NCBI GenBank assembly: GCA_016192995.1
Contig: JACPTB010000005.1
Location: 133,503-197,502, forward strand
Direction of reading: 5' to 3'
DNA length: 64,000 nucleotides
Source of the DNA: Candidatus Woesearchaeota archaeon
Lineage (GTDB): Archaea; Nanobdellota; Nanobdellia; Woesearchaeales; DSVV01
Below are positions 6,248 to 64,000 of the stretch, piece by piece. Each line of letters begins with the position of its first letter. The stretch's first letter is position 1. The notes below the pieces were generated by a model, which was not told the DNA's origin, did not search any database, and saw only the letters and a program-made list of their open reading frames with translations. A program made the position numbers and the translations under genes.

Positions 6248-6256
6248 AGTTAAATA

Positions 6257-6410
6257 GTACGTATTAAGTCTTCTTCGGGTTTAGCGCCAGTTCAGCTTAA
6301 ACGTATTATTTCGTTTGGATTTTTCTCTCTGGAACTCCGAAAAATCCACAAGGTAAGATTAAGAAGAGCTTCACAAAAGTAGGCGCTAAACCCCAGACTT
6401 AATACGTACG
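6257..6410. mobile_element. family-A palindromic MITE-like repeat (copy A1), flanked by 8-bp direct repeat GTTAAATA
   Basis: Termini GTACGTATTAAGTCT / AGACTTAATACGTAC; internal TTTAGCGCC.GTTCAGCTT and GGATTTTTCTCTCTGGAACTCCGAAAAATCC palindromes; recurs 6 times in the window. Confidence 0.8.
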
Positions 6411-6467
6411 TTAAATAACAATATTTATATACCAATGTATGGAAAAGTATACTTATGAGGTGAGTTC

Positions 6468-11247: not shown

Positions 11248-12255
11248 TTGCAACATGATGCTAAAGTTGAAGAATACTTCATTCTCCTTTCAACTCCCCC
11301 AGAAATGGATGAAACAATGAAAGAAAGAATTGAGTTCTCACATCTGATGAAACAGGAATGTGTAAGCAATAAAGAACTGGAAAATCATAGTCGAAAATAT
11401 CCTGCTTTATTTTTCAATACTTATTCAAAACAAGAAGTTTTTAACTTTCTGCAAAATAAACTTAGCCAATCTAAAACAAATGAAGAAATAGATCAGGAAA
11501 TAACAAAAATAGAACAAGGCTTGCAAAAAACAAAAAACCTGCATGAACAAATTTATGCTGAACTCCAAAATGCAGATTTGCACTATTACGCAAAAATACT
11601 TCAAAACAATGGTTTATACCGTTATAAGCTAAAGCACGTCTGGAGTGGTGCAGAGTACTTATGTTTGGATTTTATTTTAGAACTATGCAAACGAATTGGA
11701 ATTCATTTTGATGATTTTATTAAAACTTACATGTTTTCCGATATTCATGATTTTCTTTTAGGAAAAAGTGAATTGTCAAAAGCTGAAATAGAATCAAGGA
11801 AAAAATGTTTTGTTATTCACCATAAAAATCAGGCAACAAATATTTATTCTGGCGATGAAGCTATTGCTTATAAAAATAAGTTTATTATTTCAGAAGAAAA
11901 CTATAAGCAGCTATCAAACATAATTAAAGGAATGACTGCAAATAAAGGTAAAATTACCGCTAAAGCACGAGTAGTTCATGTTAAAGATTTGCAGCAATTT
12001 GCTTTAGATTGCCAGCAATTTCAAAAAGGTGAAATTCTGGTAACAACAATGACCTCTCCACTTATGGTACCTATCATTGAAAAAGCATCTGGCATTATTA
12101 CTGATGAAGGAGGCATATGTTCTCATGCAGCAATCATTTCAAGGGAGTTTGGCATTCCGTGCATTGTAGGAACAAATGGAGCATCGTTTAGCATTAAGAC
12201 TGGTGATGTTATTGAGTTGGATGGTGATAATAGTGTTATTAAAAAAATCTTGTAA
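11248..12255 (+). CDS. truncated PEP-utilising-enzyme (phosphohistidine swivel) domain protein, Rph/PEP-synthase-like
   Basis: C-terminal SGIITDEGGICSHAAIISREFGIPCIVGT...GDVIELDGDNSVIKKIL; the ORF is open upstream to 11143 with no ATG, so the start is uncertain; paralogue of 32834/34357/36141. Confidence 0.6.
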   Translation: MQHDAKVEEYFILLSTPPEMDETMKERIEFSHLMKQECVSNKELENHSRKYPALFFNTYSKQEVFNFLQNKLSQSKTNEEIDQEITKIEQGLQKTKNLHEQIYAELQNADLHYYAKILQNNGLYRYKLKHVWSGAEYLCLDFILELCKRIGIHFDDFIKTYMFSDIHDFLLGKSELSKAEIESRKKCFVIHHKNQATNIYSGDEAIAYKNKFIISEENYKQLSNIIKGMTANKGKITAKARVVHVKDLQQFALDCQQFQKGEILVTTMTSPLMVPIIEKASGIITDEGGICSHAAIISREFGIPCIVGTNGASFSIKTGDVIELDGDNSVIKKIL

Positions 12256-12282
12256 ATCATCTTAAAAACACTTAAAATTACC

Positions 12283-12436
12283 GTACGTAATAAGTCCTCC
12301 TTAGGTTTTAGCGCCGGTTCAGCTTTTGAAGTGTTCTTCAATTGGATTTTTCTCTCTGGAACTCCGAAAAATCCCCAATAAAGATATTGAGGAGCTTCAC
12401 AAAAGCAGGTGCTAAAACCCCAGACTTATTACGTAC
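12283..12436. mobile_element. family-A MITE-like repeat (A2), 8-bp TSD AAATTACC
   Basis: GTACGTAATAAGTCC...GACTTATTACGTAC with identical AAATTACC on both flanks. Confidence 0.8.
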
Positions 12437-12481
12437 AAATTACCGCAAACTATATAAACAAGTTATACTTGATGTTTAAAC

Positions 12482-12682
12482 ATGGTAGAGCTTGAACTTA
12501 AAGAATGGGGAAATTCAATTGGCGTTATTTTGCCTGCTGAAAAATTGAAAGAATTACATTTATACAAAGGAGATAAAGTAGAGATAACTATTATTCCTAA
12601 AAGAAGAGTAAATGGTTTTGGTATTTGGAAGGGTGCAAAATCATTCCAAAGAGAACATGATGATCATGAGGATTTTTGCTGA
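12482..12682 (+). CDS. AbrB/MazE-type antitoxin
   Basis: 66 aa; swapped-hairpin motif KEWGNSIGVILPAEKLKEL..GDKVEI; 7-nt overlap with the PIN gene. Confidence 0.6.
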   Translation: MVELELKEWGNSIGVILPAEKLKELHLYKGDKVEITIIPKRRVNGFGIWKGAKSFQREHDDHEDFC

Positions 12683-13068
12683 TGAGATATGTGGTTGATA
12701 CCTATGCATGGATTGAATATTTTAACGGTTCTTCTAAAGGAAAAATATTCGAAAAAATATTGTTAACTTCAGAAAATGAGTTATTAACGATTCAATGTTC
12801 ATTAGCAGAAATAATAAATTGGGCTTTACGTGAAGAAACTTCTTTTGAAGAAGCTTATAAAGTTATTAGGGCAAATTCAACTATAATTACTCTTAGTGAT
12901 TTTGATTGGATTGATGCTGGTAAAGAGCGCTTTCAACAGAGAAAAACTCAAAAAGATTTTGGTTTAATTGATGCTGTGCTGTTAGTAAAGCAAAAGCAAT
13001 ATAATGCTAAGCTTATTTCAGGCGATAAACATTTTAAAAATTTAAAGAATGTGATTTTTCTTGCATAG
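12676..13068 (+). CDS. vapC: PIN-domain toxin (VapC-like)
   Basis: 130 aa; N-terminal YVVDTYAWIEY, conserved Asp positions. Confidence 0.6.
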   Translation: MLMRYVVDTYAWIEYFNGSSKGKIFEKILLTSENELLTIQCSLAEIINWALREETSFEEAYKVIRANSTIITLSDFDWIDAGKERFQQRKTQKDFGLIDAVLLVKQKQYNAKLISGDKHFKNLKNVIFLA

Positions 13069-13082
13069 CTTAATTTAGATCA

Positions 13083-13388
13083 TTAAAATCTATATAACTT
13101 CCTTTCAAAATCAATAACTTTTCCTTTTTCAAATAAAATTCCTTCCCCTCTTAGCATCTTTATTTTCTTAGAAGAATTCATCTTTCCGCAATAACCGCCT
13201 AAACTGCCATTAGAACAAACAACTCGGTGGCAGGGAACATTTGGTGCATAAGGATTTCTTTTTAATGCATTACCTACAGCTCTATATACCTGCCCTTTTC
13301 CAAGTTTTCTACCTATCTCTTTATAGGTTGTCACTTTCCCTTTTGGAATTTTCTTGCATAATTCCCAGACTTGTTGATTGAATGACAT
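13083..13388 (-). CDS. ogt: methylated-DNA-protein-cysteine methyltransferase (MGMT/Ogt, DNA-binding catalytic domain only)
   Basis: 101 aa; active-site PCHRVV and TTYKEIGRKLG helix. Confidence 0.7.
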   Translation of the reverse strand: MSFNQQVWELCKKIPKGKVTTYKEIGRKLGKGQVYRAVGNALKRNPYAPNVPCHRVVCSNGSLGGYCGKMNSSKKIKMLRGEGILFEKGKVIDFERKLYRF

Positions 13389-13654
13389 TTTAATGTGATT
13401 AATTAAAAACTATAATCCTTTAAAAATATTTCTTAGTTCAGTATGTGAGGCTCCCCATTTTGCAGGTCTAAAATTTCTTAATTTGTCTAAAAACCTCTTT
13501 TGTAATGCAATTTTATCCATTCATTCATAGTAGTTTCACTCATTAATAAACCTATTGACATTTTTTTCGGAACTTTTTATGTTATCGTCGAAAAGTTTAC
13601 GGAATTAAGTTTAATAATTAAACAGTACTGTTTAAAAAGAAAACATTTAAATAT

Positions 13655-14011
13655 TTGTTTGATTATACGCTTTGTATGGGCGAAACAAATTTCACTTATT
13701 TTTTAGGAAATACCCCTATGGTCAGAATTTTGGATATGCTTTTAATAGGTAAACATCTAGACTACAGCATTTCAGATATTGCAGAACAAGCTGAAGTAAG
13801 TAGAGCTACTTTCTACAAAATGTTAGAAAGACTTCTTAAAGAACAGATTATTATTCCTACTAAAAAATATGGCAACATGCAATTATATCGTATTAATTTA
13901 GATAATCCTTACATTAAAGAATTAGCAAAACTTCAGGATAAATGGGCAAAATTAGGCAGTGAAGAATTGTTAACTAAACAGCAAAAGATTAAATTATCTA
14001 CAGTGATATAA
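13655..14011 (+). CDS. winged-helix transcriptional regulator
   Basis: wHTH ISDIAEQAEVSRATFYKMLERLLKEQII. Confidence 0.45.
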   Translation: MFDYTLCMGETNFTYFLGNTPMVRILDMLLIGKHLDYSISDIAEQAEVSRATFYKMLERLLKEQIIIPTKKYGNMQLYRINLDNPYIKELAKLQDKWAKLGSEELLTKQQKIKLSTVI

Positions 14012-14144
14012 TGCTATTTACCTCTTATATGGCCAACTTCAAAACATCTTTTTCTCCCAGAAATTCCAAACATCTTCTTTCATAACAACAAATTCATAAT
14101 TTCTTAGGCAATTTGCAAATTCTAATCTGATTTCATTAATAATT

Positions 14145-14483
14145 TTATACATATATCACTAATTTATTCTTTCCTTCAGGAAGCATCTCAACTTCTTTTC
14201 CTTTTTCTAATTCTAAAAACTCAATAATCTTTTTAGGGAGACGTATGTCAAGCGTTGTCCCAGCTTCACCAATTTTAGTTTTTGCTTTCAAATCCCATAA
14301 TCCTTTCTTTTTAGCAAGTGCTGTCATTTTCTTTGATTCTTCTTCATCATAAAATATTTCTCCACAAGCACTGCAAACTTGTGCATTAAATTTACCTAAA
14401 CTTACTCCGTAGAGTGTATAAGCTACTTTTTTATCATGTAAATTTCCCTTTTCACAAATATAGCATTTTTCGATAGCAATCAC
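14145..14483 (-). CDS. zinc-ribbon plus AbrB-like domain protein (putative regulator/antitoxin)
   Basis: CYICEKG...CSACGE zinc finger followed by LDIRLPKKIIEFLELEKGKEVEM swapped-hairpin-like segment. Confidence 0.35.
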   Translation of the reverse strand: MIAIEKCYICEKGNLHDKKVAYTLYGVSLGKFNAQVCSACGEIFYDEEESKKMTALAKKKGLWDLKAKTKIGEAGTTLDIRLPKKIIEFLELEKGKEVEMLPEGKNKLVIYV

Positions 14484-14519
14484 CTATTCAATCATAACAG
14501 TTTTGATAATATGTTAATT

Positions 14520-15689
14520 TTATGATCCACGATATACCCTCTCAGCTAAAACAGCAGCGCCGAGCAGATTTGGATTTATTCCCCTGTTTACAAGGTTTGA
14601 AGGACGAACATAATTAAAATGTCCCATCTCTGTTAATCTTCTTTTAAGAGTTGGTCCATAAAATGGAAGTGAAGCTAATACTCCTCCTGCTAAATAAATA
14701 GGGATGTTATCTTCAGCGCCATCAGCGTGAGCAGCAGTAAGTATTGCATGGGCAGCATCGGCAAAAATCTCTCCAAACAGAGCAAATGTCTTTAATGCTA
14801 TTGAATCATGGGAACATGCTAAATTATAGATAACCCTTCCATCAATAACAATTCCATCTAAAGATAGTTCTAATTTTTGTTTTTCTCTTTTGAGATCTGG
14901 TTTTGCTCTAAAATCTTTAGAACTATAATATATCAGGGGCAATCCAGTGCCAGACACAAGTAATTCTGTTCGTAGAGTTTTTTCATCTTTTGAAGGGCCT
15001 CGTATTTCTTTACCTAATTCAGCAAGTTTTGCTTCTAGTTCATCAAAATCAAAGTTATGCTGTGTAAATCTTTTACGTAATTCATTTTTATAAAGTGGAA
15101 CTGCATAGCCAGGCTCATTGGTAAAATGTAAGCTTTCATCTTTTTTATCCCAATCTATTGTTGGATACATTACTTCTCCATTCTGGTTTAACCATGCACC
15201 ACCAAATCCTCCGCCTAAAACCCAATATAATAGTTCTGTTTGAGCGATAATCCATTCAGCTAGTCCACCACAATCAGCGTCATTCATGATACCACATGGA
15301 ACACAAACTCTTTCTTGAACTACTTCTTTAAGATTCTGTCCATTCATGTAATCCGAATTTGCAGCTATGATGTATGATCCATCTTTTGCTAATATGCCAT
15401 TTGTTGCAATTCCAATAGAAGCAATAGTTCTCCTTTTAGAAAGTGCTTTAATCTTACTAGCTAAGTTATCAGACAATGATTCAAAAGAAGGTTCAAATTC
15501 TTGCTTAATCAGTTCTTGATAATCTATTATTTTTTTTGCATGATCAAATAAAGCTAATTTTGCTCCTGATCCAGCACCCAAGTCAATTGCTACGAAGTAT
15601 TTGTTTTTTCCCCCCATTACATGATGGAAAGTTTTGTTTTTTTTAAAGTTTATCTTTTGAAACAACCGAGATTCCATCCATTGTTTCAA
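14520..15689 (-). CDS. ASKHA-superfamily sugar kinase-like ATPase (ROK/BadF/GlcNAc-kinase-like)
   Basis: N-terminal phosphate-1 motif FVAIDLGAGSGAKLALFD; about 390 aa; adjacent to sugar-modifying genes. Confidence 0.45.
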   Translation of the reverse strand: MKQWMESRLFQKINFKKNKTFHHVMGGKNKYFVAIDLGAGSGAKLALFDHAKKIIDYQELIKQEFEPSFESLSDNLASKIKALSKRRTIASIGIATNGILAKDGSYIIAANSDYMNGQNLKEVVQERVCVPCGIMNDADCGGLAEWIIAQTELLYWVLGGGFGGAWLNQNGEVMYPTIDWDKKDESLHFTNEPGYAVPLYKNELRKRFTQHNFDFDELEAKLAELGKEIRGPSKDEKTLRTELLVSGTGLPLIYYSSKDFRAKPDLKREKQKLELSLDGIVIDGRVIYNLACSHDSIALKTFALFGEIFADAAHAILTAAHADGAEDNIPIYLAGGVLASLPFYGPTLKRRLTEMGHFNYVRPSNLVNRGINPNLLGAAVLAERVYRGS

Positions 15690-15790
15690 TGGTGGATAGG
15701 ATATCGAGCGTTGTGTTCAAGAACCACACAATGGAAGTCCGTCGGAACTTCGTTCATGCCATCTGGTCTTTGACTGGTGATTCTTGACAT

Positions 15791-17110
15791 TCAACGTTTT
15801 AGAAATTGATGCATATATTGTTTCATATCAACTCTTTGACCATTATTTTTGCGTGAGAATTCAGCAGCAAAGGCAAGCATATGGCTTTGCAATGACATTT
15901 CAGCTGTTGTTAGATTTGCATTTGGATTATTATTTCTGACTGCATCTGCAAAAGCCTTTACCAATACTCCATCTGCTCCGCCATGATCTTCCTTAGAACC
16001 ACCCTCCCAGGTAGTTATTTTGTCATACTCTGATCTGTCGTAGTTACCTTTATCTATACTTCCTCCACCGAATTTTGTTACCTCAAAACGTCCCCTGTTG
16101 ACATATCCGTATATTCTTCCCTTGGAGAAAAAAAGTTGAATTTCTCTTGAATGTTGATCCGTGTGGGCAGCTAAATAAAATTGTGCAGTTGCTCCGGAAT
16201 CAAATTGTAACATAACTGTTTGAGAGTCGCATACATCATTATCCATAGTATAAACACATCTTCCATATGGCCCTTCTCGTAAAGCTTTTTGTCTTCCTTC
16301 TATGCTTTTATCAGTGGAAATAACAGAAGGAGGCCAAATGACCTTTGACGAATCTTGCTCCGTTAAATAAAATGCCTTAGCATCATAGGGACAATCAACT
16401 TTACAATCAAGACAGTTTTCCGCTGCTCCTTCTGGCCTATTCTCTGCTTTAAAGTGATGCAGTGCTCCATATGAACTCAGAGATGAAACTTTTCCACCAA
16501 TCAGCCAGCAGAGCATGTCCAAATCATGGCAGCTTTTTGTCAAGATAACAGGTCCACTTGTTTCCTCTTTGTGCCAGTTGCCTCTGACATAACTATGGGC
16601 AAAATGCCAGTATCCAACATGTTCAGTAAGATTAATATGAAGTAGCTTTCCAAGATCACCTCTATCAATGATCTTCTTTATCTCTTTAAAAAATGGTGCA
16701 TATCTTAAGACATGAGCAACAGATAATACTTTTCCTGCTTTCTTTTGTTCATCAACAATAGCACTACAGTCTTGTGGATTATTTGCTATTGGTTTTTCCA
16801 GTAATATATTATAACCTTTCCGTAATAAGCTTATTGTGGTATCATGATGAAATCTATCAGGAGTTGCGTTTATCGCGTTATCGCAGAATCTTGTTGAGTC
16901 TAAAAAATCATCTAAGGTTTTGAATAATCGTTCTGGTGGAATATTGTGTCTCTGTCCCATCTCTTCCAGTTTTGCAGTTTCAGGGTCAACAACACCAACC
17001 ACTTTAATAGGGGATCCTTCTTCACTTGCATAAGCACCATAAGTATCTTTACCTCGGTCTCCTGCACCTATTATAACTACTTCTAACCTATCATTCTTAT
17101 CGTTAGTCAT
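15791..17110 (-). CDS. Gfo/Idh/MocA-family NAD(P)-dependent oxidoreductase
   Basis: Rossmann N-terminus LEVVIIGAGDRGKD...VVGVVDP and conserved EKP motif. Confidence 0.7.
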   Translation of the reverse strand: MTNDKNDRLEVVIIGAGDRGKDTYGAYASEEGSPIKVVGVVDPETAKLEEMGQRHNIPPERLFKTLDDFLDSTRFCDNAINATPDRFHHDTTISLLRKGYNILLEKPIANNPQDCSAIVDEQKKAGKVLSVAHVLRYAPFFKEIKKIIDRGDLGKLLHINLTEHVGYWHFAHSYVRGNWHKEETSGPVILTKSCHDLDMLCWLIGGKVSSLSSYGALHHFKAENRPEGAAENCLDCKVDCPYDAKAFYLTEQDSSKVIWPPSVISTDKSIEGRQKALREGPYGRCVYTMDNDVCDSQTVMLQFDSGATAQFYLAAHTDQHSREIQLFFSKGRIYGYVNRGRFEVTKFGGGSIDKGNYDRSEYDKITTWEGGSKEDHGGADGVLVKAFADAVRNNNPNANLTTAEMSLQSHMLAFAAEFSRKNNGQRVDMKQYMHQFLKR

Positions 17111-22901: not shown

Positions 22902-23010
22902 TGGGCCCAGCCAGATTTGAACTGGCGATCTTCTCGAATTTGAGTTAATAAAGAGATTAAAACCTTATTAATACGTCAACGAGATGTCATAGCCGCTAGA
23001 CCATGAGCCC
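22902..23010 (-). tRNA. intron-containing tRNA-Val (anticodon GAC), about 36-nt intron near position 37/38
   Basis: Reverse strand: GGGCTCA-TG-GTC..GAC-A-TCTCG-TTGACG[intron]T-CGAGA-AGATC-GCCAG-TTCAAAT-CTGGC-TGGGCCC-A; all stems pair. Confidence 0.7.
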
Positions 23011-25802: not shown

Positions 25803-25965
25803 GGCTCTGTCCCAAATCTCGGCTAACGCCTCGGTTTTGGTGCCGTGATTATCCCACTTGTTGATAAGAACGAAAAAATTCCCATTGGAATTCCCTTTTT
25901 TCTCGATTATTTATTTGTAGGATAATCACAAGCATGGCACCAAAAACTACATTTGGGACAGAGCC
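25803..25965. mobile_element. family-B palindromic MITE-like repeat (B1), 9-bp TSD GTAGTAGTA
   Basis: GGCTCTGTCCCAAAT...GGTTTTGGTGCCGTGATTATCC...GGATAATCAC..GGCACCAAAAAC...ATTTGGGACAGAGCC; identical 9-mer on both flanks. Confidence 0.8.
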
Positions 25966-40095: not shown

Positions 40096-40497
40096 CTATT
40101 CTAGCTTTATTCGCTTTATGCTTTTAACTTTATCAAAATCCACATCATCACTTACTATTAAGGTTACATTAAGTAGTTCCATAACTGCAAGATGAAAAGA
40201 ATCTCGAGGTTTTAAATTATATTTCTCCATGAAATCCAATGCTTTAACAGGAACTATGGGTGAAACTTCTTTTATGCTGAGATTAGGCATAGCATAAATA
40301 TCTTGAATTACTTGACGAATTAAAGCTTTCTTTTTATTTTTAATTATTACCCACATTACTTCCTCTAATGCTAAAACAGAGGTAACTGCAGTTTTCTTCC
40401 CGTCAATAATCTCTTTCTGCAGTGAACGTGCATTCTGACCTTTTTTCATTATATCAAAAAGCGCAAAAATAAAGAAATTTGCATCAAGGTATAACAT
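40096..40497 (-). CDS. vapC: PIN-domain toxin (VapC-like)
   Basis: MLYLDANFFIFALFD; 1-nt overlap with the upstream AbrB gene. Confidence 0.6.
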   Translation of the reverse strand: MLYLDANFFIFALFDIMKKGQNARSLQKEIIDGKKTAVTSVLALEEVMWVIIKNKKKALIRQVIQDIYAMPNLSIKEVSPIVPVKALDFMEKYNLKPRDSFHLAVMELLNVTLIVSDDVDFDKVKSIKRIKLE

Positions 40498-40748
40498 TAA
40501 AACTCCCCTTCATATAATTTATCCCCATACACAAAGCTCTTTGTCACATTTCCGCCTTCTTTTTTTGCGATTTCTTCCCATGCCTTTACTAAATCTCGTT
40601 CTGGAGCTGAGGTTATTTTAAGCACTTTTTTATCTACTTCTAAAAAAATCGTCTGGTCTTCATTGATACCAAGGCTTTCCCTAATCAGTTTAGGTATAAC
40701 AATTTGCCCCCGTGCCCCTACTTTTGTTTGTATCTGGATCATACCCAA
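40497..40748 (-). CDS. AbrB/MazE-type antitoxin
   Basis: IQTKVGARGQIVIPKLIRESLGINEDQTIFLEVD. Confidence 0.6.
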   Translation of the reverse strand: MGMIQIQTKVGARGQIVIPKLIRESLGINEDQTIFLEVDKKVLKITSAPERDLVKAWEEIAKKEGGNVTKSFVYGDKLYEGEF

Positions 40749-41184: not shown

Positions 41185-41883
41185 TTAATACTTCATACAT
41201 GCAATAAATGGCATGCCTTTTAGTTTTTTATAACCACAAACTGCAGTTACTTTTATCCAACCGAGATAGGGTACTCTTAAAAAAGCTTTTCCTAAATACC
41301 TGCGTTGATGAATATCATTTTCTCCTAATTCAACATGAGTTTTGCTGTTATGATCGCCTTTAGTGGTAAAATGATAACCATCTTCTTTCTTTTCTATATT
41401 TACTACACGATGGATAATAGGATGCGATGCTGCATTTGACTGAAAAACAATAACATCCCCTATTTGCACTTTTTCAGGTTTTTTAGCTGATTTCAAAAGC
41501 ATGATATCTGCCTTGTTAAAGCCATTCTTAAACGGAAATGCTTTGAATTGTTCTTTGGTAATATTTGTGTTGGAAGTATACCACCCCCCGCATAATTCCC
41601 AGTAAGCATCAAAATTCAACCGTTTTTCTTCTTCAAAGTTTTTTCCACAAATAGCTGGAGGCAGATTGTAATACGGCTCTACAATCTTATGCTCCATACT
41701 TCCAGAAACAACAGCTACAATAGGCAATGATGTTCCAAATGCAAAACTTAATCCTGGATATAATAAAAATCTAATAATAACAAATGCAAGAATAATATTC
41801 ACTATCCAGCTTGCTGCACTGTCATCTTCCCATACAAAATGCCAGAATTGCTTCAGTTTTTGCTTGAGGTCTTGTTTATCCAT
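41185..41883 (-). CDS. signal peptidase I (archaeal Sec11/S26B type)
   Basis: N-terminal TM helix then VVSGSMEH catalytic Ser box. Confidence 0.6.
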   Translation of the reverse strand: MDKQDLKQKLKQFWHFVWEDDSAASWIVNIILAFVIIRFLLYPGLSFAFGTSLPIVAVVSGSMEHKIVEPYYNLPPAICGKNFEEEKRLNFDAYWELCGGWYTSNTNITKEQFKAFPFKNGFNKADIMLLKSAKKPEKVQIGDVIVFQSNAASHPIIHRVVNIEKKEDGYHFTTKGDHNSKTHVELGENDIHQRRYLGKAFLRVPYLGWIKVTAVCGYKKLKGMPFIACMKY

Positions 41884-41932: not shown

Positions 41933-42148
41933 GGCTCTGGTGAAAATCTTTCAGGTTTTAGCGCCGGTTCAGCTTTTTAAGTGGATTTCGATTGGATTTT
42001 TCTCTCTGGCACTCCGAAAAATCCTCGATATCTCCTAAGAAGAGCTTCACGAAATAGGCGCTAAAACTATACGAATCAAAGAAAGTGTTGGATAACATTT
42101 GACTTTCTTTGATGGTATATTGCTGCGCAATACATTTTCACCAGAGCC
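41933..42148. mobile_element. hybrid MITE-like repeat (H1): family-B-type termini GGCTCTGGTGAAAAT enclosing a family-A core
   Basis: GGCTCTGGTGAAAATCTTTCAGG+TTTTAGCGCCGGTTCAGC...GGATTTTTCTCTCTGGCACTCCGAAAAATCC...GCGCTAAAACT...ATTTTCACCAGAGCC; fills the divergent promoter region between the signal peptidase and nmd3 genes. Confidence 0.75.
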
Positions 42149-43207: not shown

Positions 43208-43380
43208 AGAGAACTTTGCAAAATACTCGCATAGCTCGGGTTACTGCCAGTTCGCATTGAGATATATGCTTGACAAAGCAATTTTCTCTCTGGAACTCCG
43301 AAAATTGCCCGATAAGTATTTCGAAAATGCTCACAAAATAGGCAGTAACCATAATTTTGCAAAGTTCTCCGAAGAAGAAC

Positions 43381-44808
43381 CTATCCATTGAAATTTCCTT
43401 CTTTAAAGCAAGCATATCTTGTTCTTATTTCTATTCCTAATTCAGTAGTTACTTGAGTACGATTATGAAGATCTCTTGGAATAAAATCCTCAAGATCTGA
43501 TAATCGTAAAGCAAAACAGTTATTTCGAACTGCTCGATAATCATTTTCAGTTGTCATTTCCGCTGAAACTACATAAATTCCTTTTGCCATTAACGGTGTT
43601 CTACACATTTCACTAAAAGGAATACCATATCTAGTGTTTAATCTTCCTGCAGAATAAATTGCAAACGGTTCAATAATTAGATCATTAAAGTCATCATTAA
43701 TTATTTCATCGAATAATCTTACTTTTATATCATATAATTGAGCTTCGTTGTCTATCTTCCCTAAAAGTACATAGAAATTAAAAGGAGTTAAATAAACAAC
43801 TTTTATACCTTTTGTTTCAGAACCTATTCTTTCTGTCTTAAAATGTTGTGGATTAGTATCAATTTTTCTTCTCAAATTGCTCCGATCAGGCATAAAACGA
43901 CCATCGTCACATAAATCTCTTAAGAGATATGGTTTAACCCCAAAAGAATACCAACTTGGTAAATTGCCTTGAGCTCGAGAGCTTTTCACTGTTCTCTTGA
44001 ATTTATCAGGAATGTCTTCTACTTCAATTATCCCTCTTCGTTTATCTAAAGCAAATCGCTCAACTACTGATCGCAATTCCCTCACATTTCCCGGCCAAGA
44101 ATAACATTGTAGAAGTTCTAAAGCTTCTTCACTAATACCTTCTAAACTAACACCATGGTTACTATACCTATCATTATATTGTTTGATAAAATATGACAAC
44201 AATGGTAAGATATCTTGTCTCCTATCTCGAAGAGGTGCTAATCCTAGGGTATACGTATTTAACCGATAGAATAAATCTTGCCTAAATCTTCCTTCTTTTA
44301 TACAAGCTTCTAAATCGTGATTGGTTGCTGAAACAACACGAACATCAACCTCTGTTATTGCAGTGCTTCCTACTCTGGTTACTTTCCTGTCTTCTAAAAC
44401 TCTTAAAATCTTTGCTTGCAAATCAGGAGACATATCACCAATCTCATCAAGAAACAACGTGCCAGTGTTTGCAGCTTCAAATTTACCACTACGATCACTG
44501 GTAGCACCAGTAAATGATCCTTTCTTATGACCAAATAATTCTGATTCAAGTAAGTCTCGTGGTATAGCTGCACAGTTTACTGTAACAAAAGGTGCATACC
44601 TTCGAAAACTATTATAATGAAGTGCCTTCGCAACAACTTCTTTTCCTGTTCCAGTTTCTCCAGTAATTAAAACAGGCGTTGGAAAATTAGCAATTCGTTC
44701 TAATGTTTTTACTAACCCTAAAATATGATTACTTGTACCAACTAAATGACCATTATTACTACCTATTGCTAAACCTGTCTCTGCATAATCAGCTACTAAA
44801 TAAACCAT
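43381..44808 (-). CDS. sigma-54-activator-type (bEBP/NtrC-clade) AAA+ ATPase with novel C-terminal domain, no HTH
   Basis: Walker A GETGTGKE, Walker B LFLDEIGD, GAFTGA-like GSFTGA, R-finger RQDLFYRL; about 220-aa C-terminal region of unknown fold; GC-richer. Confidence 0.65.
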   Translation of the reverse strand: MVYLVADYAETGLAIGSNNGHLVGTSNHILGLVKTLERIANFPTPVLITGETGTGKEVVAKALHYNSFRRYAPFVTVNCAAIPRDLLESELFGHKKGSFTGATSDRSGKFEAANTGTLFLDEIGDMSPDLQAKILRVLEDRKVTRVGSTAITEVDVRVVSATNHDLEACIKEGRFRQDLFYRLNTYTLGLAPLRDRRQDILPLLSYFIKQYNDRYSNHGVSLEGISEEALELLQCYSWPGNVRELRSVVERFALDKRRGIIEVEDIPDKFKRTVKSSRAQGNLPSWYSFGVKPYLLRDLCDDGRFMPDRSNLRRKIDTNPQHFKTERIGSETKGIKVVYLTPFNFYVLLGKIDNEAQLYDIKVRLFDEIINDDFNDLIIEPFAIYSAGRLNTRYGIPFSEMCRTPLMAKGIYVVSAEMTTENDYRAVRNNCFALRLSDLEDFIPRDLHNRTQVTTELGIEIRTRYACFKEGNFNG

Positions 44809-44850
44809 TTTTAAGAGGAAGTTATCTTGTTTTATAAAGATTAATAATAT

Positions 44851-45372
44851 CTACCATACATCCCAATGTTCGTTGCCTTTAGTCTGCATATCAAGAACTT
44901 CTTTGACCACATTCTGCAGTTCGTACATTTTAAACCGGAGATTATCTTCCCATAATGAATCGAAGAATTCTTTGAAGACCTTTTGATATAAGAATTTCAG
45001 CATATGTTTTTTTAAGGTTGATTTTCCAAAACTATCAGTATAATCAAAATCAAGATTTCTTGTTAAACGGACATACATTCTTGCTTTCATTAATTTCTTT
45101 ACTTGGCCATCAGGTTGTGTTACATTAACATATTCTATTTCCCAAACTTGATAATGCACGAGAAGTTTAAACTTAACTACTTCATTGACTTTTTTCCATG
45201 CATCCCAATCTATACGAAGCTCTCTGCCATGGTCTTTATGCTCATAACGTATTTCATGAAGCTGATAACCCCTATAAATCAGCCAGTCATTTACTTTTTT
45301 ATAAAGATCCTGATAATCAAAAACACCTTTGAATAAAAGGTGCAGATCGAAAGGTGGAAAGGTTATGGGCAT
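44851..45372 (-). CDS. hypothetical protein (co-oriented upstream of the AAA+ gene)
   Basis: 173 aa, no recognisable motif; 42-nt spacing to the AAA+ gene. Confidence 0.4.
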   Translation of the reverse strand: MPITFPPFDLHLLFKGVFDYQDLYKKVNDWLIYRGYQLHEIRYEHKDHGRELRIDWDAWKKVNEVVKFKLLVHYQVWEIEYVNVTQPDGQVKKLMKARMYVRLTRNLDFDYTDSFGKSTLKKHMLKFLYQKVFKEFFDSLWEDNLRFKMYELQNVVKEVLDMQTKGNEHWDVW

Positions 45373-45416
45373 GATAGTTTAAAGAAATTGTCTTTTATAA
45401 ATATTATGCGACAAAC

Positions 45417-45616
45417 GGCTCTGGTGAAAATCTTTCAGGTTTTATTAAAAATCACTATTTTTAATCCCTGAGATCCTTCGGATTCAGGTAGCGCCGGTTC
45501 AGCTTTTGAAGTGTAGTTTGATTGGATTTTTCTCTCTGGAACTCCGAAAAATCCCCAAAATGAAGTTGAGGAGAGCTTCACAATATTGGCGCTAAAACTG
45601 CATTTTCACCAGAGCC
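45417..45616. mobile_element. hybrid MITE-like repeat (H2) with TSD GCGA(C/T)AAAC
   Basis: B-type termini plus A-type core plus extra internal palindrome; near-identical 9-mers on both flanks. Confidence 0.75.
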
Positions 45617-45975
45617 GCGATAAACCATTCTTTCACAAGTATCCCAACATATAAAGAACTATCAATAATACAATGATAAGAGCTAAAGCTACCCTATCCC
45701 TCTTTTTATAAAATGCATATACAATCGCTACTCCAACAAGAGTAATACCCACAAATTCAAGGCCTTTCATCAATTCTCACCAACAGCGATAAATAATGAT
45801 CCAATACCTATTAATGCTGTACCCACAATAGTCATTCGATTAGCCAATAATAAAAAACCTACTGCACCTAATACACCACCAATCATTCTTAAAACAAAGG
45901 AGTTTAATACTTTACCTTTCTTGTCAAACATACAAATTTATAGATGACAATACTTATATTTTTTTCCGTTTTATG

Positions 45976-46126
45976 TGCGTAATAAGTCTTATTAGGTTTT
46001 AGTGCCGGTTCAGCTTTTGAAGTGTATATCAATTGGATTTTTCTCTCTGGAACTCCGAAAAATCCCCACCGGGTTATAAGAAGAGCTTCACAATATTGGC
46101 GCTAAAACCCCAGACTTATTACGCAC
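45976..46126. mobile_element. family-A MITE-like repeat (A3; variant termini GTGCGTAATAAGTCT)
   Basis: Same core as A1/A2; its right end supplies the last codons and the stop codon of ribH. Confidence 0.7.
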
Positions 46127-46589
46127 TCAAAGTACGAAGCATAGCATCTAAAGCAGCTATTGCTCTTCGCCCATATTCTTCTTTTCTCGCATCTGCTGCT
46201 TCATAGCTTGCTTTTGGACCAATAACACCAAGAGTTACTGGTTTCTTATATTTTAAGCTTAATTCTGTGCAAGCTTGAGCACAGCAATGTGCTACAAGAA
46301 CATCATGATCTGTAGCACCTTGGATAACAGCTCCAAGCACTGCAACTCCTGCAATATCTTTTCTTTCGAGGAGTTGCTGCACTGCAAGAGGCGCATCATA
46401 CATTCCAGGTACTGTTATTACTTTAGCAACTTCTAATTTCAACAACTGCGCTGTTTTTCTTGCTGTTTCCAACATTACTAAAGTGATCTCTTGATTAAAT
46501 TCCCCTACTACAATACCAATGTTTGTTGGATTATTGTTTGCAATATTATTGTTATTAATGACCATGTTGAATAGAACCTGCATCTTCAC
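46119..46589 (-). CDS. ribH: 6,7-dimethyl-8-ribityllumazine synthase
   Basis: IGIVVGEFNQEIT...VPGMYDAPLAVQQL...VLGAVIQGATDHD. Confidence 0.7.
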   Translation of the reverse strand: MKMQVLFNMVINNNNIANNNPTNIGIVVGEFNQEITLVMLETARKTAQLLKLEVAKVITVPGMYDAPLAVQQLLERKDIAGVAVLGAVIQGATDHDVLVAHCCAQACTELSLKYKKPVTLGVIGPKASYEAADARKEEYGRRAIAALDAMLRTLSA

Positions 46590-59703: not shown

Positions 59704-59866
59704 GGCTTCGGTGAAAATGTAGTTTTTGGTGCCATGCTGGTGATTATCTTTCAAATTAATGAGCGAGAAAAAAGGAAATTCCAATAGGAATTTTTTCCTT
59801 CTTATCAACAAGTGGGATAATCACGGCACCAAAACCGAGGCGTGAGCCGAGATTTTCACTGAAGCC
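59704..59866. mobile_element. family-B MITE-like repeat (B3; termini GGCTTCGGTGAAAAT), TSD about TATTTTAT
   Basis: Conserved B core; sits in the divergent promoter region between the ATPase and rSAM genes. Confidence 0.75.
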
Positions 59867-61293: not shown

Positions 61294-61453
61294 GCAGTGT
61301 AGAAAATCTCGGCATAGCCTCGGTTTTGGTGCCGTGATTATCTCACTTGTTTATAAGAAGGAAAAAATTCCTATTGGAATTTCCTTTTTTCCCACATATT
61401 AATTTGAAGGATAATCACAAGGGTGGCACCAAAAACTACATTTTCTACACTGC
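61293..61453. mobile_element. family-B MITE-like repeat (B4; termini GGCAGTGTAGAAAAT), 9-bp TSD TGTTGTTAT
   Basis: Conserved B core; identical 9-mers on both flanks; starts right at the rSAM stop codon. Confidence 0.75.
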
Positions 61454-63362: not shown

Positions 63363-63408
63363 AGTATAAATAAGAAATAGTTATCAATTTAAATACTTAC
63401 TTAAACAG

Positions 63409-63561
63409 TACGTAATAAGTCTTCTTTAGTTTTAGCGCCGGTTCAGCTTCAACATATTATTTCGATTGGATTTTTCTCTCTGGCACTCCGAAAAATCCCC
63501 TATATAAAATTAAGAAGAGCTTCACAAAAGCAGGCGCTAAAACCCCAGACTTATTACGTAC
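63409..63561. mobile_element. family-A MITE-like repeat (A6), TSD about TTAAACA
   Basis: GTACGTAATAAGTCT...AGACTTATTACGTAC between ribB and archease. Confidence 0.8.
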
Positions 63562-63576
63562 ATTAAACAACTAAAC

Positions 63577-64000
63577 TTAGATATCAACCACAACCTGCAC
63601 CATAACTTTTCTATTCTTCTGGTTGTAGTTTTCATCAATAATCATATCATTATACGTTGCAGCTTTGATATCACCATGCACTTCATAGTTTTTATAGCTG
63701 TCACCATAAACTGTCGTTTGGATAATAAATTCATTTTCTTTTTTCAAAATAATAAAATCATCTATTTCGCAGGGAATAAATCCTTCAGTATCAACAAGAA
63801 ATAATAATTCATCAATAAAATCATACAATAATGCCTCTTTTGATGAAGCTTCAACTTTAATGTTGTGGCTAATCTTTGGTTTTATTTTTTTAACATTGGT
63901 TAACAAATTAAACATTCCTACACCTGCGCTAATAAACGCTTGCTCAAGTGTCTGCCCATATGCCTGGAATTTAGCATCTGCAGTGTGTTCAAGGAATTTT
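63577..64000 (-). CDS. archease (partial; runs off the window edge)
   Basis: The ORF continues upstream of the listed Met: ...KFLEHTADAKFQAYGQTLEQAFISAGVGMFNLL... then C-terminal YNDMIIDENY. Confidence 0.6.
   Translation of the reverse strand, partial: KFLEHTADAKFQAYGQTLEQAFISAGVGMFNLLTNVKKIKPKISHNIKVEASSKEALLYDFIDELLFLVDTEGFIPCEIDDFIILKKENEFIIQTTVYGDSYKNYEVHGDIKAATYNDMIIDENYNQKNRKVMVQVVVDI

Follow-up and report, generated by a model that had tools for sequence, protein, structure and literature searches.

A bacterial enhancer-binding-protein-type AAA+ ATPase with an unassigned C-terminal domain in a Woesearchaeota genome

Bacterial enhancer-binding proteins (bEBPs) are the textbook example of an AAA+ motor that serves one client alone, sigma-54, and archaea, to our knowledge, possess neither sigma-54 nor any other sigma factor. 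A protein of this family is nevertheless encoded in a 64-kb stretch of the Candidatus Woesearchaeota contig JACPTB010000005.1, referred to below as the window, which raises the question of what such a motor might do in a host that appears to lack its client. The protein is a genuine member of the bEBP AAA+ clade, its GAFTGA-type loop is intact and the genome that encodes it is archaeal; the gene is best read as a domesticated bEBP derivative that has gained a lasting place in a few lineages of low-GC, DPANN-type archaea.

The ATPase core and its archaeal setting

The open reading frame (ORF) encodes 475 residues and is identical to MBI3032729.1, which lies on a 264,827-bp contig and is named 'sigma-54-dependent Fis family transcriptional regulator [Candidatus Woesearchaeota archaeon]'. 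In the following, P-numbers denote retrieved proteins, the window protein being P0003, and L-numbers denote the loci compared. The elements recognized in the gene and upstream of it are these:

43381..44808, minus strand: gene of the 475-aa bEBP-family AAA+ ATPase, stop codon included, from the ORF list (MBI3032729.1)
44245..44745, minus strand: AAA+ core, Sigma-54 interaction domain, aa 22-188 (Pfam PF00158, Sigma54_activat, E 7.8e-70)
44638..44661, minus strand: Walker A motif GETGTGKE, aa 50-57, read directly; invariant in four archaeal-type homologues
44503..44520, minus strand: L1 loop GSFTGA (GAFTGA-type), aa 97-102, read directly
44434..44457, minus strand: Walker B motif LFLDEIGD, aa 118-125, read directly; the homologues have an invariant FLDEIGDMS
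44260..44289, minus strand: R-finger/sensor region RFRQDLFYRL, aa 174-183, read directly
43975..44229, minus strand: AAA+ lid, aa 194-278, with sensor II GNVREL at aa 240-245, invariant in the homologue alignment (AAA_lid_14, PF25601, E 1.6e-22)
43384..43974, minus strand: C-terminal domain, aa 279-475 (about 197 aa), of a four-member family; two units and a long terminal helix in the model
44831..44838, minus strand: TATA-like box TTTATAAA of the AAA+ gene, beginning 30 nt upstream of the ATG

The core matches positions 1-167 of the 168 in the PF00158 profile and scores 234.4 bits where the cut-off is 20.2; only 21 aa precede it, with no sensory domain. The matches in Pfam, NCBIfam, PADLOC and the PDB are all confined to aa 16-280; in NCBIfam, more than 25 bEBP equivalog models were hit at E-values from about 1e-91 to 1e-60, in every case through the central domain only and far under the curated cut-offs. 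Of 122 proteins retrieved, a set comprising 120 bEBP matches and two proteins of the neighboring 173-aa gene, 117 match the L1 loop form G[ASV]FTGA. The loop reads GAFTGA in P0004, P0006 and a 456-aa relative encoded at locus L089, and GVFTGA in P0019, while in the R-finger region F175, R176, D178, L179, Y181, R182 and L183 are invariant across the homologue alignment. Compared with the gene for P0004 at locus L001, which comes from an independent assembly, the core has a dN/dS of 0.107, the lid 0.084, the C-terminus 0.476 and the AAA+ gene as a whole 0.23. The core and lid are under strong purifying selection.

The Fis-type helix-turn-helix (HTH) domain carried by most of the bacterial bEBP matches (HTH_8, PF02954) was not found here, either in the full protein at E <=0.01 or in the C-terminus at E <=5. 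The product name in the NCBI record is wrong on both counts, as the Fis HTH is missing and the presence of a sigma-54 is improbable. A preliminary description of this DNA had already recognized the bEBP-type ATPase and its motifs, the short N-terminal extension, the missing Fis-type HTH and a C-terminal domain of no recognizable family, all of which stand; the length of about 220 aa that it gave for that domain comes down to about 197 aa beyond the lid.

Its archaeal assignment of the locus is likewise borne out. Directly flanking the gene on both sides are NMD3, a TFS-type zinc ribbon protein, a CTP-dependent riboflavin kinase and an archaeal-type riboflavin synthase, as identified by Pfam, and a DMRL-synthase-like riboflavin synthase pair is found among the neighbor genes. 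The order ribH, 173-aa gene, AAA+ gene and NMD3 is repeated in L001, and since independent assemblies reproduce the arrangement, the contig is not chimeric. No description of archaeal bEBPs was found in the literature; a 2025 survey recorded no sigma-54 enhancer-binding proteins among 380 archaeal proteomes, which were used as a negative control (PMC12316311).

The base composition of the gene does not bear out the earlier statement that it is GC-richer than its neighbors and might have been acquired recently from bacteria. Its GC content of 0.338 compares with a window mean of 0.337 and falls at the 51st percentile among windows of the same size, whereas its GC at third codon positions (GC3) of 0.166 lies below the 0.24-0.32 of the flanking genes; nothing in the composition therefore points to a GC-richer bacterium as a recent donor. 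The gene is also predicted to have its own archaeal promoter, which would imply a leaderless mRNA. A TATA-like motif between -24 and -42 from the start codon, the range that was scored, occurs in 17 of the 53 window genes versus 2.9% of random sites, and the box of the AAA+ gene is kept at the same distance in L001, though the spacer to the upstream gene is 126 nt there and 42 nt in the window.

The C-terminal domain, its relatives and the possible function

The C-terminus has no Pfam match at E <=10, HTH_17-type families included, and no sequence similarity in the PDB. A word-indexed search of 5.8 billion proteins returned no match, and HMMER, run exhaustively over 1.84 billion representatives, yielded P0004 as the sole real one (48% identity, E 4e-54), P0123 and P0124 having been rejected as additive artefacts on TPR and WD40 repeats. 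BLASTP revealed a weakly homologous C-terminus in P0006 (26% over 137 aa, E 6e-6), and a scan of metagenomes added the L089 protein as the fourth member. An alignment of the four sequences has 20 invariant positions, and in all four proteins the domain is fused to this type of AAA+ core, the only setting in which it was found; its profile matched nothing in GTDB representative genomes or viral contigs. By these sequence comparisons the domain appears to be real, conserved and very narrowly distributed. The low-confidence AlphaFold2 model shows it as two beta-alpha-alpha-beta-beta-alpha units (about aa 292-348 and 382-442) with a long helix at the end. Unit 1 is basic (pI 9.7), unit 2 and the linker are acidic, and hhalign detected no internal repeat between the two units. 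The model yields weak winged-helix-like structural matches, which makes nucleic acid binding by the domain plausible; it may comprise two small winged-helix-like modules, and the picture would then shift back towards a DNA-binding regulator.

A fifth relative, P0019, is encoded at 3746-4900 of L008. It shares with the window protein, P0004, P0006 and the L089 protein the short N-terminus without a sensory domain, the GAFTGA-type loop, and the AAA+ core and lid. At 384 aa, it has a shorter and different C-terminus ending in ...SKSEVRELIRRGLTQTQGSYKILTRLFNIEHTEYKKFLNFLRKH, in which a degenerate Fis-type HTH can be discerned by eye, although not by Pfam, and the protein may stand midway between bacterial bEBPs and the form with the new C-terminal domain. 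All contigs with homologues are low-GC or DPANN-like. On the 183.8-kb contig of L089, a group II chaperonin (thermosome) gene lies 4.3 kb from the AAA+ relative, and L089 is therefore archaeal. At the same locus, the ~4.9 kb downstream of a secreted 592-aa protein (11400-16300) contain only a few short ORFs, with otherwise none of at least 60 aa; this probably reflects one giant ORF that runs past the end of the locus and is for that reason not listed by the ORF tool.

The cores of these proteins are 52-56% identical to those of bacterial (metagenomic) bEBPs, about the same as between the two archaeal subgroups, and transfer of the gene from bacteria is therefore likely, but not a recent one. 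Full-length alignment against GTDB representatives gave 594 bEBP loci, the best 80 of which are bacterial except L085. The latter, a 2.6-kb contig of a 'Methanococcoides' metagenome-assembled genome (MAG), was discarded as an archaeal case, as it encodes a classical PAS-AAA-HTH8 protein and is most likely a binning contaminant. In a neighbor-joining tree with 116 bacterial top matches, the five archaeal-type cores cluster together, with P0006, P0019 and the L089 protein forming a subgroup at 100% bootstrap support. For a common origin, the shared C-terminal domain is a stronger argument than the tree.

If the protein works as its family does, it would assemble into a bEBP-like hexameric ring in which ATP hydrolysis moves the L1 loops, and these would grip and remodel a partner. 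The partner is presumably not sigma-54, as archaea have no sigma factors that we know of, no RpoN-box motif occurs in the six reading frames of the window, to whose 64 kb the RpoN-related scans were confined, and sites resembling a -24/-12 promoter (TGGCAC-N5-TTGCW with <=2 mismatches) are not in excess there: 41 were found against 30.9 +/- 4.4 expected, none of them perfect, a count reported as no enrichment. That the loop has another target, as the preliminary description supposed, is the natural inference. The partner could belong to the archaeal transcription machinery or be some other protein. In place of the enhancer-binding HTH, the C-terminal domain would probably target the motor, most likely via nucleic acid, because its first unit is basic and its structural matches are winged-helix DNA binders. 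The loop is kept in all five homologues and lost in TyrR-like relatives, which suggests that it still acts on some client. With moderate confidence, we regard the protein as a sigma-54-independent, ATP-driven regulator or remodeller that is targeted by its C-terminal domain; within that reading, DNA binding by the domain seems somewhat more probable than its absence. An ATP-driven remodeller rather than a transcription factor had been suggested before as part of a two-gene module, and it is the sigma-54-independent remodeller or regulator that is retained.

Several points weigh against this interpretation. First, the mechanism is drawn by analogy from family membership only. Next, the model of the C-terminal domain is of low confidence (predicted local distance difference test score, pLDDT, of 55), and Foldseek found nothing for it at E <0.1, in a list that also has KH and ACT tandem domains. 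The comparison with five excisionase/MerR-type (HTH_17-like) exemplars by hhalign gave probabilities <1%, a weak negative as the exemplars were not validated against Pfam, and the C-terminus is fast-evolving (dN/dS 0.48). In addition, the clustering of the five archaeal-type cores in the tree has a bootstrap support of only 26%, and an archaeal origin is established for L089 and presumed for the contigs of P0006 and L008. Finally, that the MAG lacks RpoN beyond the window is an assumption based on general knowledge of archaea.

A more specific form of the sigma-54-independent reading is that the GAFTGA motor has been re-targeted in some DPANN archaea to an archaeal substrate; guided by a new C-terminal domain that binds nucleic acid, it might for instance use ATP to remodel the initiation complex of TBP, TFB and RNA polymerase or a repressor, which would make the protein an 'archaeal enhancer-binding protein'. 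This is unlikely as it stands, although the loop in five homologues, the purifying selection, the archaeal promoter and the weak winged-helix hints mildly favor it.

Alternatively, the protein might be a non-transcriptional AAA+ unfoldase or chaperone, in which the L1 loops would thread a protein and the C-terminus would serve as an adaptor or in substrate recognition rather than bind nucleic acid. The sigma-54 N-terminus has reportedly been seen in the hexamer pore of PspF by cryo-electron microscopy, so that bEBPs do act on polypeptides, and the negative sequence tests for a C-terminal HTH, the acidic unit 2 and linker, and the secreted proteins and trypsin-like protease encoded next to the L089 relative could all be accommodated. 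However, the only consistent structural matches are to DNA-binding winged helices, the degenerate Fis-type HTH of P0019, seen by eye and not by Pfam, points to a DNA-binding ancestry, and no conserved neighbor gene hints at a substrate, which leaves the unfoldase possible but doubtful.

An ordinary sigma-54 activator appears improbable. It would depend either on an RpoN that went undetected in the MAG or on a bacterium, as partner or host of the probably symbiotic archaeon, that supplies the sigma-54 holoenzyme. The GAFTGA-type loop of all five homologues, which sigma-54-independent relatives have lost, and the 52-56% core identity to bacterial bEBPs would be expected of such a protein, and the missing HTH would be no obstacle, given that bEBPs without a DNA-binding domain, such as FlgR and CtcC, can activate from solution. 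Nevertheless, archaea lack sigma factors as far as we know, the window has neither an RpoN box nor an enrichment of -24/-12 sites, the promoter of the gene is of the archaeal type, and a signal peptide or export feature is not evident by eye, no predictor having been run.

The neighboring gene and the dispersed repeats

The 173-aa protein gene lies upstream of the AAA+ gene on the same strand and is preceded by a TATA-like box of its own:

44851..45372, minus strand: gene of a 173-aa orphan protein, MBI3032730.1, with a 42-nt spacer to the AAA+ gene
45394-45401, minus strand: TATA-like box TTTATAAA of the 173-aa gene, 29 nt upstream of the ATG

Its product belongs to no family in Pfam, NCBIfam, PADLOC or PHROGs; the preliminary description had called it unknown and had given the 42-nt spacer. 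Nothing credible was found in Pfam at relaxed E-values or in a PDB sequence search, its profile has no match in JGI metagenomes or viral contigs, and the AlphaFold2 model is of low confidence (pLDDT 54.7). The only homologues are P0001, P0002, P0125 and P0127, and the protein has an invariant C-terminal GNEHWDVW. The gene, seen only in this Woesearchaeota lineage, adjoins ribH wherever the context is visible. Between the window and L001, the protein is 99% identical at 91% DNA identity, and a dN/dS of 0.018 marks the gene as extremely constrained. Recombination was rejected as the cause of the greater divergence of the AAA+ gene, as the dS values are comparable (1.08, 0.54 and 0.72); the difference between the two genes therefore reflects constraint.

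The preliminary description saw in the two genes a pair that might form an ATP-driven remodelling or defense-type module. They do share a strand and a 42-nt spacer, their adjacency is kept in L001, other accessory insertions such as a VapBC pair lie nearby, and some AAA+ relatives adjoin PIN-domain genes. Such a module is nonetheless very improbable and is largely refuted by L090 (GCA_053531935.1), which is syntenic with the window over 38.5-49.4 kb (~11 kb) at 72-80% DNA identity. The order there is riboflavin kinase, ribC, ribH, the 173-aa gene, NMD3 (convergent), a 232-aa gene and TFS, with 77 nt between the 173-aa gene and NMD3 in place of the AAA+ gene; the 232-aa gene is a homologue of the window ORF 41185-41883 and has no Pfam match. 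The 173-aa gene likewise occurs without the AAA+ gene in L002-L007 and L091-L092, where its distant homologues are followed by an unrelated 351-363-aa gene. Conversely, no recognizable 173-aa gene stands beside the AAA+ relatives of L089, L008 or the P0006 contig, although a 32-aa fragment upstream of P0006 could not be checked without the DNA. The neighbors of these relatives are different at every locus, with secreted proteins and a trypsin-like protease at L089, and PIN and AAA_14 or DUF2283, PIN and arginyl-tRNA synthetase genes elsewhere. Moreover, each of the two window genes has its own TATA box, their constraint differs (dN/dS 0.018 versus 0.23), PADLOC is silent on the 173-aa protein, and neither the 173-aa gene nor the AAA+ C-terminus has sequence relatives in the viral contigs scanned. 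The 173-aa gene is a conserved, lineage-specific core gene that is adjacent but not functionally linked to the AAA+ gene. The latter is a stand-alone accessory gene, a lineage-specific extra between two conserved core genes that was either inserted beside the 173-aa gene or lost from L090.

It is barely credible that the AAA+ gene arrived by horizontal transfer and is now decaying without a function, a view suggested by its patchy distribution, its absence from the close syntenic relative L090 and the C-terminal dN/dS of 0.48, since the 475-codon frame is intact in two lineages at a dS of about 1, the core and lid evolve at a dN/dS of 0.08-0.11 with all catalytic motifs invariant, the TATA box is conserved and GC3 has come fully into line with the AT-rich host.

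The block of otherwise conserved genes around the locus has gathered several accessory elements, among them repeats and a VapBC-type pair. The pair (40096-40748, minus strand) consists of a PIN-domain protein (E 2.6e-17) and a MazE/AbrB-type antitoxin (E 4.8e-10); it is flanked by the TFS and SpoIIM-like genes and is not present in the syntenic L090. Farther away, a 109-nt tRNA match of intron-containing size at 22902-23010 (minus strand; Rfam, 51 bits) was missed by ARAGORN run with bacterial settings and fits an archaeal genome.

The repeats are dispersed palindromic hairpins of ~130-200 nt with the invariant core TTCTCTCTGGAACTCCGAAAA, of which the window has seven copies, all on the plus strand, versus zero expected by chance:

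6255-6435, 12285-12460, 41940-42110 and 63405-63585, plus strand: repeat copies
43209..43369, plus strand: diverged repeat copy between the stop codons of the AAA+ gene and NMD3
45416..45617, plus strand: repeat copy 'H2', 44 nt upstream of the 173-aa gene
45970-46131, plus strand: repeat copy at the 3' end of ribH

No Rfam family corresponds to the repeat, and it was not matched in viral contigs or the loci compared. The diverged copy keeps its stems by two-sided compensatory changes at seven pairs. As the three local copies are missing from the orthologous sites of L001 and L090, they are mobile, MITE-like (miniature inverted-repeat transposable element) insertions, and the repeats are unrelated to the AAA+ gene. 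The hybrid repeat that had been placed upstream of the supposed pair is thus present, as the copy H2, and its link to the genes is not upheld. The orientation bias and hairpin structure resemble REP/PATE-type elements (repetitive extragenic palindromes and palindrome-associated transposable elements) mobilized by HUH (IS200/IS605-like) transposases. An interpretation as integron attC-type boundaries was rejected, as the copies are dispersed among housekeeping genes and represent simple insertions with respect to L001 and L090; no R'/R'' core sites were seen in them by eye, a pattern search not having been run.

At 46112-46131, the inserted repeat copy has taken the place of the final codons and stop of ribH, the lumazine synthase gene (3' end, 46119-46150), so that the protein ends in ...LDAMLRTLSA* where L001 has ...LDRMINILK*. 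Between two of the copies, two overlapping small ORFs of 46 and 53 aa (45633-45931, minus strand) have the look of single- or double-pass membrane peptides, and neither L001 nor L090 has any of the ~740-nt segment 45406-46145, which looks like cargo carried in by a composite insertion. A second family of ~100-nt repeats, with the hairpin GGAAAAAATTCC-N-GGAATT-CCTTTTTTC, is found at 25872-25965, 61360-61443 and, as the reverse complement, 59715-59798; one copy of it lies upstream of the 173-aa homologue in each of L002 (97-189), L003, L006 and L007.

Comparison with known systems

A bEBP that has been selectively kept, together with its client-gripping loop, in a host without the client would show, if true, that the motor is redeployable, and the window protein offers a concrete case for asking what a GAFTGA loop recognizes besides sigma-54. 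We know of no ATP-dependent transcription activators in archaea, and an archaeal one would introduce a principle of regulation new to that domain of life. Should the protein instead be a general remodeller or depend on an overlooked RpoN, the case would be a curiosity, a gene that reached DPANN genomes by horizontal transfer.

Among defense systems (PADLOC-DB 2.0), the AAA+ part of RtcR-type models was matched only, the 173-aa protein had no match, and, with the adjacency of the two genes not conserved, the suggestion of a defense-type module finds no footing. RtcR itself, an RNA repair activator of CARF-AAA+-HTH architecture, is the best PADLOC match (PDLC01993-01995, E 1.5e-99), through the AAA+ part only, and the top NCBIfam match, where it is approximately tied with AtoC and NifA at ~1e-91 and is covered at profile positions 181-446 only. 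The NCBIfam scores fall well short of the cut-offs (308 versus 650 for RtcR and 308 versus 529 for NifA), and, unlike RtcR, the window protein has neither a CARF domain nor an HTH, and no rtcA or rtcB is found nearby.

The closest solved structures are the AAA+ domains of FleQ, NtrC and PspF. In the PDB, aa 16-272 align with the 263-residue chain of 6jdi ('Nitrogen assimilation regulatory protein') at E 2e-75, followed by the FleQ AAA+ domain at 1.2e-74. The AAA+ core and lid can be aligned with these bEBPs (FleQ/FlrA, NtrC/NtrX and PspF) over their full length, all motifs being present, and PspF and HrpR/S likewise have no N-terminal sensory domain. In contrast to the bEBPs, the window protein belongs to an archaeal host, has a ~197-aa unassigned C-terminal domain and no HTH_8, and is preceded by a leaderless-type archaeal promoter. 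A precedent for bEBP-type AAA+ proteins working without sigma-54 is provided by TyrR, NtrC of Rhodobacter capsulatus and PhhR, which have lost the GAFTGA motif and kept the HTH, whereas the window protein has kept the loop, as GSFTGA, and has no HTH. What remains is a rare bEBP variant in which a GAFTGA AAA+ motor is joined to a novel C-terminal domain, and which is accessory in a few DPANN-type archaea.

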